A stretch of DNA of 64,000 bases from a phage. Location of the stretch: assembly GCA_033580375.1 (NCBI GenBank), contig GCA_033580375.1_4527.1. One strand, written 5' to 3'. The translations under genes were made by a program, and so were the position numbers. Below, in pieces: positions 216 to 61,918 of this stretch (positions within the stretch are counted from its first letter, which is position 1; each line of letters opens with the position of its first letter). The notes below the pieces were generated by a model, which was not told the origin of the DNA, searched no databases, and saw only the letters and a list, made by a program, of their open reading frames with translations.

Positions 216-824
216 TCAGTAACTGACAATAGTCAGATTCCAGATTGTATAATTTCCGTCTTGAATAATAGAATCTACACGCAGTGTAGTCCCTATAGGG
301 AGCATAAATTCACATTCGTCAGATATAAGTCTAGCATTAGACCGTCTTGTCGCTTCAGGGAAAGCTCCATTGAACTCACAAGACGGCGCAGCCAGAATCA
401 TATTAAGCATATGTTCACGGAAGTTGAAAGCAAATGGTGCATCTTTGATGCAGAACATATTAAATGTTCCGTAAAAATTATACGAAGCGAAGTTACGTGC
501 TACACCGAACACCGGGCTGAAGCTCATTACTCTATCAAATTTAATAATACTACCAACGCCTTTATCATCAAGTGTGGCCATAGTTTTCTTAGAGATTCCA
601 CGATACATTGTCTCAGGAACAGAAGACGACCAATTTCTACGAACAATTGCACTTAAATCTTGTTGGATGCTATCAGGCTTGTTTTCCATACACTGCCATA
701 GTACACTTTGTTCAATGTCGCTGAATTGCTCATCGATTTTGTACTGAAGCATATCTTGATAATCTGGACATTGAGCACGTCGAACCATTTCCTCAATTTC
801 ACATTCATTATACGGCATAAACAT
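216..824 (-). CDS. ADP-ribosyltransferase, ModA/ModB-like
   Basis: 202 aa; R (YRGISKK), S-x-S (SFSPVF) and E-x-E (DECEF) motifs in the order expected for Arg-specific ARTs; sits near soc as mod genes do in T4. Confidence 0.5.
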   Translation of the reverse strand: MFMPYNECEIEEMVRRAQCPDYQDMLQYKIDEQFSDIEQSVLWQCMENKPDSIQQDLSAIVRRNWSSSVPETMYRGISKKTMATLDDKGVGSIIKFDRVMSFSPVFGVARNFASYNFYGTFNMFCIKDAPFAFNFREHMLNMILAAPSCEFNGAFPEATRRSNARLISDECEFMLPIGTTLRVDSIIQDGNYTIWNLTIVSY

Positions 825-5431: not shown

Positions 5432-6091
5432 TTAACCTCGATTCATAAATGCATTAAATATTTGGTCATCAACAGAAATTTCTAATTCGACTTCAATTGC
5501 TTCAGCCTTTTCTTCAGGTGGTAATTCGTATCCACACACTACAATTTTTTCATCGATATCAAAATATACAGAAGCAATATGATTAATGTTATTTTCAGTT
5601 AAGTCTAAATCAACATCAACATCTTTTTGACCTACACTTAAAGGATAACTAATACGGGTTATTTTATTATCTTTAACAAAGAGTCCACCAACATACTCTG
5701 TACTACGTTTGAAGTTTACACGTTTCCGAATTGAAAGATATGATGCATCTTTACCGTGGGCTCGGCTCATAGGACATAATGAATAACTAGAATAAGAGAT
5801 ATCAAATCCTACGCCTTCAACATGTGCCAGAGTATCATGAGTAAACCAATTATAGTCGTATGCCAAATCCATTAAATTATAATATGTGAATGGAACCGGA
5901 TTAACGTCATACGTTGTACCTTTAAAATCTGCCCAGGCAACGATTTCGTTATCTTTAACAATTACAAAAATTACACCAATATGGTATCCGTTATTATTTT
6001 CATTCGGCGTTATATTATAACATTGTGCATTAGGAAATTTACCATATTTAAATGGCGCGTTTTTGTGCATATAATAAATCATATTATTCAC
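5432..6091 (-). CDS. hypothetical protein
   Basis: 219-aa ORF, no recognisable motif. Confidence 0.5.
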   Translation of the reverse strand: MNNMIYYMHKNAPFKYGKFPNAQCYNITPNENNNGYHIGVIFVIVKDNEIVAWADFKGTTYDVNPVPFTYYNLMDLAYDYNWFTHDTLAHVEGVGFDISYSSYSLCPMSRAHGKDASYLSIRKRVNFKRSTEYVGGLFVKDNKITRISYPLSVGQKDVDVDLDLTENNINHIASVYFDIDEKIVVCGYELPPEEKAEAIEVELEISVDDQIFNAFMNRG

Positions 6092-44598: not shown

Positions 44599-44901
44599 TT
44601 AGATAGATGTAGGCTCTAATTTTATTTTCATGAACTCGGCAAATTGTCTGGCAGTTTTTATGCCTTGTTCCTGGCATTCAAATGCATCATCACAGGGGCT
44701 ATTTTTGTAATGCTTTGCCATATACTTATAAAATTTTTCAGAATTCTCAACATTTTGAATTTCGAACAAAGTATATACGTTTTTAATCCCTGATTCCATA
44801 AAGTTATCAAAGTACGGGTCAACATATGCAGTACCAACAATAGGAGTCGTTGCTGCAAAAAACCCCAGCATCGCCACAATGGCTATCGCTCTTAAGGCCA
44901 T
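44599..44901 (-). CDS. secreted protein (signal peptide)
   Basis: 100 aa; N-terminal hydrophobic signal-like segment, Cys pairs. Confidence 0.45.
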   Translation of the reverse strand: MALRAIAIVAMLGFFAATTPIVGTAYVDPYFDNFMESGIKNVYTLFEIQNVENSEKFYKYMAKHYKNSPCDDAFECQEQGIKTARQFAEFMKIKLEPTSI

Positions 44902-44913
44902 ATAGGCCTCCTG

Positions 44914-45126
44914 TTAATTTTGGCCAGTATTTATTTTTCGCCTTTGAACGGCCTTAACATCTGCGAGGTATTTTTCCAGCTTGCGCTTGCGTGTATAATC
45001 AGCTTTAGAACCAGTTTGACGGATATCCTCGTTTAAATGAGAAATAGAATGTCCTAATTCTCTTCGGATTTCATCCAATTGGGTTACAGTAAGATTACGA
45101 AGTTGTCTTTCGTTTAATTGCTGCAT
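44914..45126 (-). CDS. hypothetical protein
   Basis: 70-aa basic ORF. Confidence 0.4.
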
Positions 45127-45153
45127 ATATACCTCTTGGTTAGATATTAGTAT

Positions 45154-45735
45154 TTATAACAACCCTGTCAAATCATTCCAATGCTTCCGGCATAATGACA
45201 CATATCTATCGGTATCACCAATTTCAATTTGTCCACCGTCTGTAATTGGAAGTCCATCTTCCGTGACTCTAGCTACCATAGTGGCCTTTTTACCACAATG
45301 ACAGACACCTTTAAGTTCAACAAGCTTGTCGGCAATAGCCATTAATGCTTGAGAACCTTCAAATAGATTACCTTTAAAATCTGTTCGTAGTCCATATGCC
45401 ATTACTGGCACATTGTATACGTCAACAATACGACTAAGTTGATACACCTTTTCAGTAGTTAAGAACTGAGCTTCGTCAACAAATACACAGTGAATATCCT
45501 TTTGTGCTGCAGCCCATTTATAGAATTCAAAGATATCCATGTCTTTTGTAATTATATTGGCATCCTGACGAATACCAATACGAGAGACTATTTCACCTTT
45601 TGAATCACGAGTATCAATATCCGGTTTAAGAACTAATACACCCATGCCACGTTCTTTATAGTTATGTGCGGCAGTAAGTAATGAAGCAGACTTACCAGCG
45701 TTCATTGCTGCATAAGTAAAAATTAAACTCGCCAT
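45154..45735 (-). CDS. tk: thymidine kinase
   Basis: 193 aa; YAAMNAGKS Walker A, VDEAQF, C-terminal CxCG...C zinc motif; same length as T4 Tk. Confidence 0.9.
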   Translation of the reverse strand: MASLIFTYAAMNAGKSASLLTAAHNYKERGMGVLVLKPDIDTRDSKGEIVSRIGIRQDANIITKDMDIFEFYKWAAAQKDIHCVFVDEAQFLTTEKVYQLSRIVDVYNVPVMAYGLRTDFKGNLFEGSQALMAIADKLVELKGVCHCGKKATMVARVTEDGLPITDGGQIEIGDTDRYVSLCRKHWNDLTGLL

Positions 45736-45744
45736 AAGAGTCCC

Positions 45745-45927
45745 TTATAATGAATTCACATAGTCAATGAGTTCTTGTTCTTTCCTGTCAAATGATTCCA
45801 ACAACGCTTGATATTCTTCATCTGTTAAAGGAGCATATTCATCGTACGCATTGGTGGCTGCTTGCTCATCCAATAGGTCATGGATAAGTTCGAACAGTTT
45901 AGCTTTCTCTTCTTTAGTCAATTTCAT
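45745..45927 (-). CDS. hypothetical protein
   Basis: 60-aa acidic ORF. Confidence 0.35.
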   Translation of the reverse strand: MKLTKEEKAKLFELIHDLLDEQAATNAYDEYAPLTDEEYQALLESFDRKEQELIDYVNSL

Positions 45928-46151
45928 TTAGGTTCACCTTCTTTAACGAAATCTGGGTAAGGGTAAAATCCTGAGTAAAACCCTTCACCTTTGTGATTGC
46001 TACAACCTTTGTTCGAACAGTAGCACCAATAATCAAAATCACAAGCCATTTCATCATTGCATAAAGCAAAAACTACAGGCCATTCACATCTTTCGCATTT
46101 AGCACCTGTAAGAATTTTTGTTTGACTCATAACCATTTGACCTGCATGCAA
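45924..46151 (-). CDS. small Cys-rich protein
   Basis: 75 aa with about 10 Cys (possible Zn binding). Confidence 0.4.
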   Translation of the reverse strand: MHAGQMVMSQTKILTGAKCERCEWPVVFALCNDEMACDFDYWCYCSNKGCSNHKGEGFYSGFYPYPDFVKEGEPK

Positions 46152-46339
46152 TATTCTTCGACATGCTTTTTACGACCTTTCTTATCAATAAAGGTGTATT
46201 CCATAAAGCGTCCATGATAACGACGTTCAACATCGTGAGGGGTGTTAATAGGACACTTAGTCTGACGAATTTCTTCCCATTCACGAATAATAACTGCTTT
46301 ATTCTTTGGGTCATACGGGTGAGGATAATGCACATTCAT
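46127..46339 (-). CDS. hypothetical protein
   Basis: ATG at 46339 overlaps the TGA of the macro-domain gene (ATGA). Confidence 0.4.
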   Translation of the reverse strand: MNVHYPHPYDPKNKAVIIREWEEIRQTKCPINTPHDVERRYHGRFMEYTFIDKKGRKKHVEEYCMQVKWL

Positions 46340-46833
46340 AATAATGGTTCCCAATCAACAATCACAATTTCTAGTTTAGTGGAATATGTATCAAGAATTT
46401 CTTCGATAACGTCCCAGTTTCCACCACCGATACCTGCACCAATTCTTGGCATATAAATTACAGGCTTTGTTATCTTATTCTTTCCGAATTCATTTAATTC
46501 TATTATACAATTCATTAAAGCAGAGTACTCAAAATTAGGTCCCGGCTCAAACTGTGTATAAAGATTAAAGCAATAAGCTTTATGGGTCTTAAAATATTTT
46601 TCATAAACTGAATAAGACCCGAGTTTAGACTCGTCTCCGAATTCGGTTTGAAGTTTATCAGCTTCCAGAATTTTTGGATAAGCCTTTGCTAATTGTCCTG
46701 CCACACCAGCGCCCATTGTATGAAAACAATTACACCCATGAGCAATATTGTTACCTTTAGAAAACAGGGCGACAATATCGCCCTTGATATAGTTTTTAAT
46801 CACTTGCTGCAAGTCCTCTAGTATAAGAGTCAA
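46336..46833 (-). CDS. macro-domain protein (ADP-ribose binding / hydrolase fold)
   Basis: 165 aa; AHGCNCFHTMGAGVAGQLAKAYP and MPRIGAGIGGG resemble macro-domain glycine-rich motifs. Confidence 0.55.
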   Translation of the reverse strand: MTLILEDLQQVIKNYIKGDIVALFSKGNNIAHGCNCFHTMGAGVAGQLAKAYPKILEADKLQTEFGDESKLGSYSVYEKYFKTHKAYCFNLYTQFEPGPNFEYSALMNCIIELNEFGKNKITKPVIYMPRIGAGIGGGNWDVIEEILDTYSTKLEIVIVDWEPLL

Positions 46834-47143
46834 CTAGACGGTCCACCATAGAATTGCATGCTGCCTTATCTTTAGGTTCCGCCACCGAGCATTCTAATAT
46901 TTGCCATTTTTTATGATATCGTTTAATTAAGGTAGACGCCTTGAACCTACTAGACGCCCCATCTTTTTCTCCGTCTTTATATGCGTATAACAATTTTTGT
47001 GAAAAATCTACTTTACACTCTTGACTTTTACCACAATAATCAGACGCCGTTCTGTTTGTATACTCCGTTACATCAGTATATGTAGTATTAGCAAGAGCGT
47101 TAAATGAAACCAAGCCAACTATTAAAGCCAACATTTTGGTCAT
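46796..47143 (-). CDS. secreted protein (signal peptide)
   Basis: 115 aa; hydrophobic N-terminus, ends ALA-NT. Confidence 0.45.
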   Translation of the reverse strand: MTKMLALIVGLVSFNALANTTYTDVTEYTNRTASDYCGKSQECKVDFSQKLLYAYKDGEKDGASSRFKASTLIKRYHKKWQILECSVAEPKDKAACNSMVDRLVDSYTRGLAASD

Positions 47144-47682
47144 TCTTTTACTTCCAGTAGTTTATTTGATTTAAGGTAATTAGCCTTTTCTAGGACTTCA
47201 GAAGCATATTTACTTCCAGCACTTGTCTTCCATCCCGCATTATATGAGGATATAGCTTTTCTTATATCCCCGTTATGTATATTTAACCAATAAGAAAATT
47301 CGATATAAGCCCATCTGGCTGAATTAGACCGCTTAGATAGCATTTTCTTAATTTGGGCATCAGTCATATTATAACCAAGCTGGTTAATTCTTGCCCTCAT
47401 TGTTGGTAGATAGTTTTGGAACATTCCATACGCATGGTGACCTTTCTTATCTTTAAGATTAACACCGGCAGATGATTCCTGCCATAGTATTGCGGCCATT
47501 ATGTATCCAAGTCCTTTCTTATGCATATTTTCATGCGTTTTAAATTTTCCGTCCTTAGAAAACTGTTCCCCAAACTGATAAGCATAATTCAAGTTATCGA
47601 GTTGGACATTACTAAAAGTATGCTCGGAGCTATGTGCTGATAACGAAAGAGCAAATAGACCAGCGAGTAGTGCTTTTCTCAT
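47140..47682 (-). CDS. periplasmic lytic transglycosylase-like (SLT domain) protein
   Basis: 180 aa; signal peptide; QESSAG (catalytic E-S) and SSYNAG motifs typical of SLT/goose-lysozyme fold. Confidence 0.5.
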   Translation of the reverse strand: MRKALLAGLFALSLSAHSSEHTFSNVQLDNLNYAYQFGEQFSKDGKFKTHENMHKKGLGYIMAAILWQESSAGVNLKDKKGHHAYGMFQNYLPTMRARINQLGYNMTDAQIKKMLSKRSNSARWAYIEFSYWLNIHNGDIRKAISSYNAGWKTSAGSKYASEVLEKANYLKSNKLLEVKE

Positions 47683-47690
47683 GTTTACCT

Positions 47691-48149
47691 CTAGATTTTA
47701 ATAACTGCTTTAGAAGCTTTTCCTGGTAGTCGTTTACTGTTAATAATAGCCATTCTACATTGAAGAGTCTTCATTTTGAATGCCGGATTTTCGCGACAAA
47801 CTGTAAGGCCTAGCCAAAGATTTCCATCAGTTATTTCTAAACGGCCTGGGCGGTATTCGACACCTTCGACAAAATCTTCATCAACATCTGGACGTGCCGG
47901 CATTGATAAAAATTCTGCAACTTCTTTAACGTGATTTTTTACTTTACGAAATAATTCAAAAACGTAATTCTCATCTATTTCTCTCTGGATGGCACGATCT
48001 AAGAGATGTTGAGAATACTTGATATGAAAGCCTGGTAGTCCAAGAGACTTTGCAGCATCTTTTATACCGGCATTTATTTTGCGGAACTCCGTTTCAAAGA
48101 TTCGACGGAGTTTATTACGGCGGATAAAAACTTCCGAATTGATAGTCAT
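47691..48149 (-). CDS. regB: endoribonuclease RegB
   Basis: MTIN.EVFIRRNKLRR.FE.EFR.IN...YSQHLLDRAIQREIDE.YVFELF...PGRLEITDGNLWLG.TVC...LQCRMAIINS.RLPGKASKAVIK matches T4 RegB. Confidence 0.9.
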   Translation of the reverse strand: MTINSEVFIRRNKLRRIFETEFRKINAGIKDAAKSLGLPGFHIKYSQHLLDRAIQREIDENYVFELFRKVKNHVKEVAEFLSMPARPDVDEDFVEGVEYRPGRLEITDGNLWLGLTVCRENPAFKMKTLQCRMAIINSKRLPGKASKAVIKI

Positions 48150-48157
48150 TTTGATTT

Positions 48158-48206
48158 CTCCTCTAGTTGACAGGTCTATAGTAACACAACTAGAGGAGAA
48201 GTAAAC
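48158..48206 (-). promoter_or_regulatory. early promoter embedded in 12-bp inverted repeat sequestering regB SD
   Basis: minus GTTTACtt-CTCCTCTAGTTG-[loop TGTTACTATAGACCTG]-CAACTAGAGGAG-aaatcaaa-ATG. Confidence 0.6.
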
Positions 48207-48210
48207 TACT

Positions 48211-48426
48211 TTATTGATAAAATGGAGTTAAAGCCCAAGATTCTTTAGATACCATATCGGCGAAATGCCTCATCTCTTCGATTTGGCGACGACGCTGGTC
48301 AGCATAGTCTTCTTCGCCTTCTTCTTTACAATCTTCAAGGTCTTCTTCAAGATACTTTAAGTATTCACTACAAATTTTGTTGATCTTTTCCTGGAAGTCC
48401 AATAACCCAGTAATAGTAGAAGCCAT
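48211..48426 (-). CDS. hypothetical protein
   Basis: 71-aa acidic ORF. Confidence 0.4.
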   Translation of the reverse strand: MASTITGLLDFQEKINKICSEYLKYLEEDLEDCKEEGEEDYADQRRRQIEEMRHFADMVSKESWALTPFYQ

Positions 48427-48692
48427 TAGTATTTTTCCTCAGGTCGAAATACTGCGCGGCATGCCCACATGCTGGCTTCTTTTAGATGTTGCTTAGCATA
48501 CTTAAGAGCCTGCACTGCATCCATATCTTCTTTGGTTTGTTGCTCTGTTTCATTTTCTTTCAAGATATATGCTTCTTCAATCAGAGCATCAAACAACAAT
48601 CCAAGACGGACTTCAGCATCTTTAATAGCGTTCACTTTACCAATTTTATCATCGGTATGCGGCTTGTAGCCTTTGATGTCTTCAATCGACAT
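48426..48692 (-). CDS. hypothetical protein (start trimmed to internal ATG)
   Basis: ORF 48426..48860 overlaps 48682..48906; internal Met MSIEDIKGYK gives compact arrangement. Confidence 0.4.
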   Translation of the reverse strand: MSIEDIKGYKPHTDDKIGKVNAIKDAEVRLGLLFDALIEEAYILKENETEQQTKEDMDAVQALKYAKQHLKEASMWACRAVFRPEEKY

Positions 48693-48906
48693 AAGGAATT
48701 TCCTCATCGGTGGCAAGGTCATATTCGACCAATTGGATAGGCTCATTAATACCATATCCACGTACAGTGATATCAGTTGTCGGATAGTTTCCAGTAATAT
48801 CACCCATTCTAAATGCTTCAATGAATGATTGCTCGCCTGAGCAACTAAACCAGGCGGCAAAACATTTTAAAACATCTTCAGACCCTTCTATAATCAATTT
48901 AGCCAT
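48682..48906 (-). CDS. hypothetical protein
   Basis: 74-aa ORF starting right at the GrcA-like stop. Confidence 0.4.
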   Translation of the reverse strand: MAKLIIEGSEDVLKCFAAWFSCSGEQSFIEAFRMGDITGNYPTTDITVRGYGINEPIQLVEYDLATDEEIPYVD

Positions 48907-49268
48907 TATAGACTCTCAGTAAAGGTACGAGCGATAACGTCGCGCTGCTGTTCTGGAGTCAGAGAGTTAAAGCGAACTGCATAACCGGATACACGAATGG
49001 TCAGCTGAGGATATTTTTCCGGATGCTTAACTGCATCTTCCAGAGTTTCACGACGCAGAACGTTAACGTTCAGATGTTGACCACCTTCAATTTTAACTTT
49101 AGGTTGATGTTCAATTTCAATTTCACGGGCATTCAAACCGTAGAAAATTTCAGGGTCTACAATAGCGTCTTCTTTAAAAGTCTTAGAGACAATAATCCGG
49201 GCTTGAGTACCGTCTTCAAAATAAATAGTGCCTTTATGTGCACCTTCAAGAATTTGATATGCTTTCAT
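48906..49268 (-). CDS. autonomous glycyl-radical cofactor, GrcA (YfiD)-like
   Basis: 120 aa; C-terminal [58 protein letters not shown] matches the E. coli GrcA C-terminus as recalled, including the RVSGY glycyl-radical motif. Confidence 0.85.
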
Positions 49269-49274
49269 ATAACC

Positions 49275-49583
49275 TCAATTAGAAAATAAATTTATCCAAG
49301 TTTTTTCTTTAATCAAAAATGGGTCGGAATTAAACGCCATTAAACTTTGAGTGATTAATCCCTTAAATGGCCCATCAATAAATTCCATTTTGAAATGCGG
49401 AATACTAGTCATCAACCGTGCATTAGGAGCAGTACAAAGAACCTGCTGACCTGCGAATGGACCTTTAGTCAAACGATATCGTTTAGGTTTAAAATGGTAG
49501 ATCTCGTAATTTTCTACAAGAGCCCTTTTATTGCATACTGGGCTATTATAACAATATTCAAAAACTTCAATAGTGGTCATCAT
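49275..49583 (-). CDS. hypothetical protein (start uncertain)
   Basis: ORF 49275..49646 trimmed to internal Met to avoid overlap. Confidence 0.4.
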   Translation of the reverse strand: MMTTIEVFEYCYNSPVCNKRALVENYEIYHFKPKRYRLTKGPFAGQQVLCTAPNARLMTSIPHFKMEFIDGPFKGLITQSLMAFNSDPFLIKEKTWINLFSN

Positions 49584-52978: not shown

Positions 52979-53437
52979 TTATAGGAGTGTAGTGAGCACC
53001 TTATATAATGATTTGCCCATCACATATTCCCATTGAGAAGGTTTAATTAAAGCGAATGCATCAAATTCAGGAATCTGTCGTCCGTCTGGGAATGTATGAT
53101 AGGAATTACAAACACTGTTTCTGAATTGCTCGTGCTCTACAGGGATGGTATATAGGAACAGATGAATATTCTTATTGTCTGAGTAATGATGTTCGCCTAG
53201 GTCTTTCAGGAAGGCAGGGTCATATTGTGTAAACCCAGTTTCTTCTTCGCATTCACGAATAGCGGCTTCGATAGGAGATTCGCCGGGTTCGACACGGCCT
53301 TTAGGAATATCCCACCGATGAGCTAAAGAACCTTTAGGACGAGAACCAGTTACACGGCCCATGAATAACTCTTTATCTTCGGTAAGGAAAATAATACCGG
53401 CTGATAGCTCTTTCACTTTATTTTTCTTACTCATCAT
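52979..53437 (-). CDS. nudE: Nudix hydrolase NudE
   Basis: 152 aa; Nudix box GRVEPGESPIEAAIRECEEETGF. Confidence 0.8.
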   Translation of the reverse strand: MMSKKNKVKELSAGIIFLTEDKELFMGRVTGSRPKGSLAHRWDIPKGRVEPGESPIEAAIRECEEETGFTQYDPAFLKDLGEHHYSDNKNIHLFLYTIPVEHEQFRNSVCNSYHTFPDGRQIPEFDAFALIKPSQWEYVMGKSLYKVLTTLL

Positions 53438-61761: not shown

Positions 61762-61838
<77 letters not shown>

Positions 61839-61844
61839 AATATA

Positions 61845-61918
61845 TGACCCAGACCAGATTCGAACTGGTAACCTTTCCCTTATGAGGGGACTGCTACTAA
61901 CCGTTGAGCTACAGGGCC
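61845..61918 (-). tRNA. tRNA with CAU anticodon (Met or Ile2)
   Basis: hand-folded: T-arm ACCAG-TTCGAAT-CTGGT, anticodon loop CTCATAA, acceptor GGCCCTG/CTGGGTC with one mismatch; no encoded CCA. Confidence 0.55.

Follow-up and report, generated by a model that had tools for sequence, protein, structure and literature searches.

What a phage does with a macro domain, and on whose ADP-ribose that domain acts, is the question raised by a minus-strand open reading frame at 46336..46833 of the window, by which we mean the whole 64,000-nt stretch of phage DNA analyzed here. A first-pass annotation had read the product as a macro-domain protein lying in an accessory block of small and secreted proteins, and had suggested that, together with a ModA/ModB-like ADP-ribosyltransferase encoded elsewhere in the window, the phage may both write and erase ADP-ribosylation, for example to reverse that imposed by host defence.

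In the window's list of open reading frames, this frame is read from TTG 46833 and gives 165 aa. Four facts indicate that the real start of the gene is almost certainly GTG 46803, for a product of 155 aa: (i) in relatives beyond the closest phages (>95% identical), the alignment begins at about residue 11 of the 165-aa frame; (ii) a closely related Mosigvirus record carries a 468-nt coding sequence annotated from the GTG equivalent to 46803; (iii) T4 tk.4, also 155 aa, starts at the equivalent codon (ATG), with an in-frame TAG immediately upstream; and (iv) a Shine-Dalgarno sequence precedes the GTG, with the identical GAGGA and spacing found before the T4 tk.4 ATG. The longer, TTG-start reading was dropped on these grounds, and the additional segment is improbable as a translated part of the protein. 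The frame reported at first is a real one, whose start had probably been placed 30 nt too far upstream. The features of this locus are as follows.

46336..46803, minus strand: tk.4/adfM coding sequence from the favored start, 155 aa, GTG start, TGA stop, single macro domain
46804..46833, minus strand: in-frame extension from TTG 46833, inside the 3′ end of vs
46814..46818, minus strand: Shine-Dalgarno sequence GAGGA, 10 nt upstream of GTG 46803
46796..46803, minus strand: 8 nt shared by the 3′ end of vs (stop TAA 46798..46796) and the tk.4 start at GTG
46336..46339, minus strand: ATGA overlap between the tk.4 stop (TGA 46338..46336) and the start of the tk.3 homologue (ATG 46339..46337)
46127..46339, minus strand: tk.3 homologue, 70 aa, DUF7202 (E=1.6e-37), 77% identical to T4 Tk.3
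46796..47143, minus strand: vs, 67% identical to T4 Vs

With translation beginning at GTG 46803, tk.4 overlaps genes at both of its ends, an arrangement that fits coupled translation; the overlap of its stop with the next ATG, noted at the outset, is present in the sequence at 46339..46336.

Over the 3.1 kb surrounding the gene, identity reaches 96–97.6% with many Mosigvirus phages of Escherichia (RB69-like relatives of T4), and the local order is that of T4 (tk, tk.1, tk.2, tk.3, tk.4, vs, vs.1, regB), with the neighbor families TK, Phage_zn_bind, DUF7202, Macro, vs, SLT-like and RegB recovered in the same succession. Aligned without gaps to T4 Tk.4, the protein is identical at 132 of 155 residues (85%), and it shares 151 of 153 residues with RB69 Tk.4 (99%). 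Because gene order and protein identity agree, the macro-domain gene is, by these two measures, the Mosigvirus orthologue of T4 tk.4, a gene renamed adfM (anti-DarT factor Macrodomain). The protein also matches PHROG 335 (E=8.7e-67), and GenBank labels for tk.4 proteins vary between “macro domain protein”, “ADP-ribose binding module” and “phosphatase”.

Several observations concern the neighborhood itself. The description of an accessory block of small and secreted proteins was a fair one, as the N-termini of both vs and vs.1 products resemble signal peptides. That of Vs, the “valyl-tRNA synthetase modifier” (MTKMLALIVGLVSFNALA), is unexpected, given that the enzyme on which Vs is said to act is cytoplasmic; the protein has four cysteines, all kept in T4 Vs, and vs was the most depleted gene in minimal medium in the HIDEN-SEQ preprint (10.1101/2025.11.20.689424). 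Downstream, tk.3 is present in the window and in T4 and absent from RB69, where tk.4 is followed by tk.2 (L007 5317..5960), so the overlapping downstream partner of tk.4 varies within the genus. Inside the 5′ end of tk.4, about 20 nt past the start codon, an 8-bp GC-rich hairpin (AGGGCGATATTGTCGCCCT) at 46766..46784 (minus strand) is followed by a T-rich stretch and looks terminator-like. It is identical in T4 tk.4. As the conserved KGDIVAL motif is encoded by this stretch, the hairpin may have arisen by coincidence from the coding sequence or may serve as a small regulatory structure. A consensus scan for promoters and terminators over 44900..49300 returned promoter-like sites no more often than in shuffled sequence (12 versus 14.8) and is therefore uninformative on transcription units in that interval.

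The macro-domain call, made originally from glycine-rich motifs (loops GAGVAG and IGAGIGGG), was upheld by domain, model and structure searches. Pfam Macro (PF01661, gathering cut-off 22 bits) matched residues 32–146 of the 165-aa frame at 27.4 bits, covering model positions 2–117 of 118. An AlphaFold2 model built on an alignment of 64 homologues, with six strands and five helices consistent with the α/β/α macro fold and its central mixed β sheet, reached a pLDDT of 95.8 and a pTM of 0.91. Foldseek assigned this model a probability of 1.0 to TARG1, Poa1p, DarG, BT1257 and SCO6735; it returned 136 PDB matches at E≤0.001, and each of the 50 listed is either a macro-domain structure or a designed protein whose sequence matches macro domains. 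In sequence, the best PDB relatives were BT1257 (E=5e-11) and Poa1p, with SCO6735, DarG and TARG1 weaker. As modeled, the protein is a stand-alone macro domain of the ALC1-like class, to which TARG1, DarG, SCO6735 and Poa1p belong.

The substrate of this domain is suggested by work on the T4 orthologue. T-even phages were found to be resistant to DarTG2, with the reason left unexplained (PMC11257639). In a preprint of November 2025, transposon sequencing of T4 gave one significant hit, tk.4, that was depleted on a host expressing DarTG2, and a clean tk.4 knockout was sensitized to DarTG2, the gene being renamed adfM; the authors put forward removal of ADP-ribose from DNA by T4 Tk.4 as a proposal (10.1101/2025.11.20.689424). 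The requirement for DarTG2 resistance has thus been demonstrated by others, genetically and in a preprint, for the T4 gene. Because that orthologue, 85% identical and set in the same gene order, is needed to resist DarTG2, the earlier suggestion that the protein reverses host-defence ADP-ribosylation of DNA is supported by orthology. We consider it likely that the gene in the window, as the tk.4/adfM orthologue, encodes an ADP-ribose-stripping enzyme that counters DarT2, and that its catalysis probably does not depend on a lysine.

The last of these points derives from the active site, whose three motifs are encoded as follows.

46729..46740, minus strand: codons for His22-Gly-Cys-Asn25 (H-G-C-N-C motif), Asn25 being the conserved macro-domain asparagine
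46552..46566, minus strand: codons for Asn80-Leu-Tyr-Thr-Gln84 (N-x-Y-T-Q motif), Gln84 lying at the catalytic-lysine position
46420..46449, minus strand: codons for P119-R-I-G-A-G-I-G-G-G128, the glycine-rich phosphate-binding loop

These residues are invariant or nearly so across the wider set of 260 family members: H22 in 254, N25 in 258, N80 in 259, Y82 and Q84 in all 260, and G122 and G124 in 258 each. Within the 64-sequence alignment P119, I121, G122 and G124 are invariant, and G33 is invariant or nearly so in the family. MAFFT and hhalign agree in aligning Gln84 with Lys80 of DarG and Lys84 of TARG1; the DarG K80A mutant is inactive (PMC5179494). Against SCO6735, hhalign (probability 98.2) paired N-L-Y-T-Q84 with N-M-I-G-Q85 and the H22/N25 region with H24/N27, and in SCO6735, which cleaves thymidine-linked ADP-ribose on DNA, both Q85A and Q85E are dead (PMC9411070). 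Among the other residues, H22 and N25 align with His24 and Asn27 of SCO6735, N25 with Asn22 of DarG, and the G122/G124 loop with Gly126 and Gly128 of SCO6735 and Gly119 of DarG. Mutants at the first of these positions (SCO6735 His24 and Asn27, DarG Asn22) have their activity abolished or strongly reduced, and mutants at the glycines (SCO6735 Gly126 and Gly128, DarG Gly119) have it lowered (PMC9411070, PMC5179494); specifically, SCO6735 N27S lost nearly all activity and G128E a substantial part (PMC9411070).

The alignment of catalytic residues, on which the macro-domain proposal had been made to depend in part, gave a divided outcome: the DarG/TARG1 lysine is gone, but an invariant glutamine that is functional in SCO6735, among the closest relatives with known biochemistry, stands in its place, and N25 and the glycines are kept. 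Because Gln84 is found in every one of the 260 members, within a near-invariant N-x-Y-T-Q, the loss of the lysine is, on this pattern of conservation, not decay. The new point to emerge is that the active site of T4-type AdfM appears to be glutamine-based and SCO6735-like, lacking the lysine of DarG; the T4 preprint compared the protein with Mycobacterium tuberculosis DarG alone, and the glutamine substitution goes unmentioned there (10.1101/2025.11.20.689424). For SCO6735 itself, a water-mediated, lysine-free mechanism has been proposed (PMC9411070).

Taken with the T4 genetics, our own observations (the fold, the orthologous relationship, the order of the genes and the conserved SCO6735-type residues) lead us to infer that the protein removes ADP-ribose from DNA and that the glutamine serves in doing so. 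Under the mechanism that we propose, the protein would be made from the series of small, overlapping genes that extends from tk to regB. In a DarTG2 host, DarT2 would ADP-ribosylate thymidines of single-stranded phage DNA and so block replication. The macro-domain protein would then bind the ADP-ribose in its glycine-rich cleft and hydrolyze the N-glycosidic bond between ribose and thymine, restoring the base and releasing free ADP-ribose. With Asn25 holding it in place, Gln84 would orient the distal ribose so that cleavage could proceed through water, unlike the mechanism of DarG, which uses Lys80. Set against this explanation are the nature of the T4 support, which is genetic and comes from a preprint, and the lysines K34 and K89 with which SCO6735 positions DNA; these correspond to Ala32 and Gly88 here, and most of the family has A, S or G at position 32.

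A third point against it comes from domain fusions within the family, whose spread is given first. By tblastn, matches were found in 2,799 of 50,697 phage genome records, in T4-like phages, Felixounavirus, Ackermannviridae, Pakpunavirus, and Vibrio and Acinetobacter phages. When 1.84 billion cluster representatives were searched with a profile, 17,823 matched at E≤1e-3, and the number fell to 1,162 at E≤1e-30; the roughly 1,160 clusters at the latter threshold give the size of the T4-type AdfM family, with H-G-C-N-C and N-x-Y-T-Q as hallmarks. Two homologues are labeled as bacterial MAG sequences, on contigs of 3.2 and 4.5 kb with no darT neighbor on either; T4 RNA ligase 1 and a Dda-like helicase mark one contig as clearly phage-like, and the other has an SLT-domain gene among unannotated ORFs. 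Being short and without darT, these contigs are uninformative on an origin in a cellular toxin-antitoxin system. A Pfam scan of ten longer family members found Macro or nothing in eight, DUF4326 in one and Nudix in one. For DUF4326, a clade of rhodanese-phosphatases, a role in the processing of ADP-ribose phosphates has been proposed (PMC9503650). Its association with Macro is recurrent: the two are fused in P0231, and on the phage-like contig with T4 RNA ligase 1 and the Dda-like helicase a DUF4326 gene (L005 69..371) lies three genes upstream of the Tk.4-family gene.

The Nudix and DUF4326 fusions fit small-molecule ADP-ribose processing equally well, so the protein may have such a role as a secondary or alternative activity, and the T4-type enzyme may have a wider substrate range. 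In its strong form, this alternative holds that the protein processes small ADP-ribose derivatives, as an ADP-ribose-1″-phosphate phosphatase, an O-acetyl-ADP-ribose deacetylase or a degrader of an ADP-ribose-derived immune signal, with DNA de-ADP-ribosylation secondary or absent. In addition to the fusions, it draws on yeast Poa1p, a top match in both sequence and fold that has the H-x-C-N-C motif in common; on a comparative study which argued that the Macro domains of phages act for the most part on diffusible derivatives of ADP-ribose (PMC9503650); and on the RefSeq label of T4 and RB69 tk.4, “phosphatase; contains A1pp phosphatase motif”. That label, however, rests on a motif and not on an assay, the phenotype of the T4 knockout is seen specifically with DarTG2, which modifies DNA, and the SCO6735 residues required for thymidine-ADP-ribose cleavage are the very ones that are invariant in the Tk.4 family. 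We therefore give the strong form a small chance of being correct.

A second alternative would retain the anti-DarT2 function and dispense with chemistry, the protein binding DarT2 or shielding ADP-ribosylated DNA without hydrolyzing any bond. The absence of the DarG/TARG1 catalytic lysine would be compatible with this, and binding of DarT appears to be how two other phage factors, AdfA and AdfB, work (PMC11257639). Furthermore, SCO6735 Q85A, although catalytically dead, remains an inhibitor of DarT in vitro (PMC9411070), and since it does so by binding, hydrolysis need not be the sole mechanism. Strict conservation of the active site (Q84 throughout, N25 nearly so, and both glycine loops) is nevertheless what is expected of an enzyme, whereas variation would be expected in a protein that binds fast-evolving toxins; in addition, the 155-aa protein matches only positions 4–146 of the 338-position DarG model and so has no C-terminal DarT-binding domain like that of DarG. 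A purely non-catalytic action is accordingly very unlikely in our judgment.

The final alternative involves the putative writer of ADP-ribose encoded in the same window.

216..824: open reading frame of a ModA/ModB-like ADP-ribosyltransferase, PHROG 832 (E=1.6e-38)

This identification was itself correct: in addition to the PHROG match, the product is 32% identical to T4 ModB (full length, 210 columns) and 34% to ModA, and its R, S and ExE motifs align with those of ModB (YRGIS, SFS/SFT, ExE); a Pfam scan of the same frame gave no match. The proposed pairing was not supported: although writer and potential eraser do occur in one phage, the idea that the macro domain erases ADP-ribose placed on host proteins by phage Alt/ModA/ModB-type transferases is scarcely credible. 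A distance of 45 kb separates the genes, which are unlinked in T4 too. T4 ModA and ModB are R-S-E enzymes, of which ModA is known to act on arginine (Arg265). Arg-ADP-ribose is cleaved by DraG/ARH-type enzymes; TARG1-like macrodomains, which are not known to cleave that bond, act on ester-linked ADP-ribose (PMC8120803) and in the cases of DarG, TARG1 and SCO6735 on the thymidine-linked form also (PMC9411070). The sole tk.4 phenotype reported from the T4 transposon screen was seen on the DarTG2 host (10.1101/2025.11.20.689424).

Returning to the reading of tk.4/adfM as a DarT2 counter-measure, other features of the window bear on ADP-ribose or on the character of the phage.

5435..6082, minus strand: homologue of T4 gene 61.2 (adfA, anti-DarT1 factor), 66% identical to T4 and 98% to RB69
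52979..53437, minus strand: Nudix hydrolase with a clear Nudix box, at the nudE position
61762..61838 and 61845..61918, minus strand: tRNA-Arg(TCT) and tRNA-Met(CAT), the sole two tRNA genes found in the window

The AdfA homologue has His at the position that is Arg164 in RB69; Arg164 is the non-neutralizing allele, and the His allele enables DarT1 neutralization (PMC11257639). With this allele and tk.4/adfM both in the window, the phage appears, from its gene content, to be armed against both DarT1 and DarT2, a combination useful for predicting host range from sequence. NudE is described in the RB69 record as active on ADP-ribose, and the Nudix hydrolase could dispose of the ADP-ribose freed by the macro domain.

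The gene is already known, widely annotated and recently named as a counter-defence gene, and its identification is a correct but ordinary finding; it adds one more confirmed copy and indicates that such genes can be picked from raw sequence. For T4-type AdfM, the apt catalytic-dead control would be Q84A or N25A, not a lysine mutant.

Comparison with known systems places the protein closest to the Tk.4 proteins of T4 and RB69, with which it shares length, start position, Shine-Dalgarno sequence, and the setting of vs upstream and tk.3/tk.2 and tk downstream. It differs from T4 in starting with GTG rather than ATG and in overlapping vs by 8 nt, where the T4 vs/tk.4 junction is a 4-nt ATGA overlap; no functional difference is evident.

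Outside the phages, SCO6735 of Streptomyces coelicolor (PDB 5e3b) and BT1257 of Bacteroides (2fg1/2afc), a close homologue of SCO6735, are likewise stand-alone ALC1-like proteins with Gln at the lysine position, and the His, the Asn and the two loop glycines for thymidine-ADP-ribose hydrolysis are present here. Identity to them is only ~21–27%, their motif reads N-M-I-G-Q-H-G in place of N-x-Y-T-Q, and SCO6735 is cellular whereas the protein here is phage-borne. TARG1 (human OARD1) is a top structural match, but its Lys84/Asp125 dyad is replaced by Gln84/Gly126, the latter pairing coming from MAFFT. Poa1p, the other top structural match, is a small-molecule phosphatase; its alignment is good over the N-terminal half (E=1e-8) and weak over the C-terminal half, and of the positions compared (His23, Ser30 and Phe152, mutated in PDB 6lfs/6lft/6lfu) His23 corresponds to His22 and Ser30 to Thr29.

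The DarG macro domain (Thermus aquaticus 5m31/5m3e, M. tuberculosis 5m3i) has the same fold (Foldseek probability 1.0, TM ~0.75), keeps the Asn and the glycine loops, and would share the substrate, DarT2-modified thymidine; its Lys80, in a P-T-K motif, is Gln84 here. The protein is not a DarG, because its score against the two-domain, ~340-aa NCBIfam equivalog NF048014 is 32 bits, below the cut-off of 250, because the C-terminal DarT-binding domain is missing, and because darT is absent nearby: the surrounding 5 kb, with vs and tk.3 as neighbors, contain no ART-like ORF or darT.

PhiKZ gp104, independently named AdfM, is also a phage-encoded stand-alone macro domain; it counters DarTG2, removes DarT2-made ADP-ribose from DNA in vitro and is imported into the phage nucleus (PMC13309987). 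It differs in being a close relative of DarG (E=9e-25 to M. tuberculosis DarG) that keeps the P-T-K lysine, so the name “AdfM” covers two separate branches within a single fold class, and the contrast of glutamine and lysine active sites bears on whether they should share a name. We put at about even the chance that T4-type AdfM is an independent, mostly phage-borne ALC1-like branch, not a captured DarG, that cleaves thymidine-ADP-ribose in the lysine-free, glutamine-dependent manner of SCO6735. If that branch is independent and the PhiKZ type is DarG-derived, phages have solved DarT2 at least twice, with chemically different active sites.
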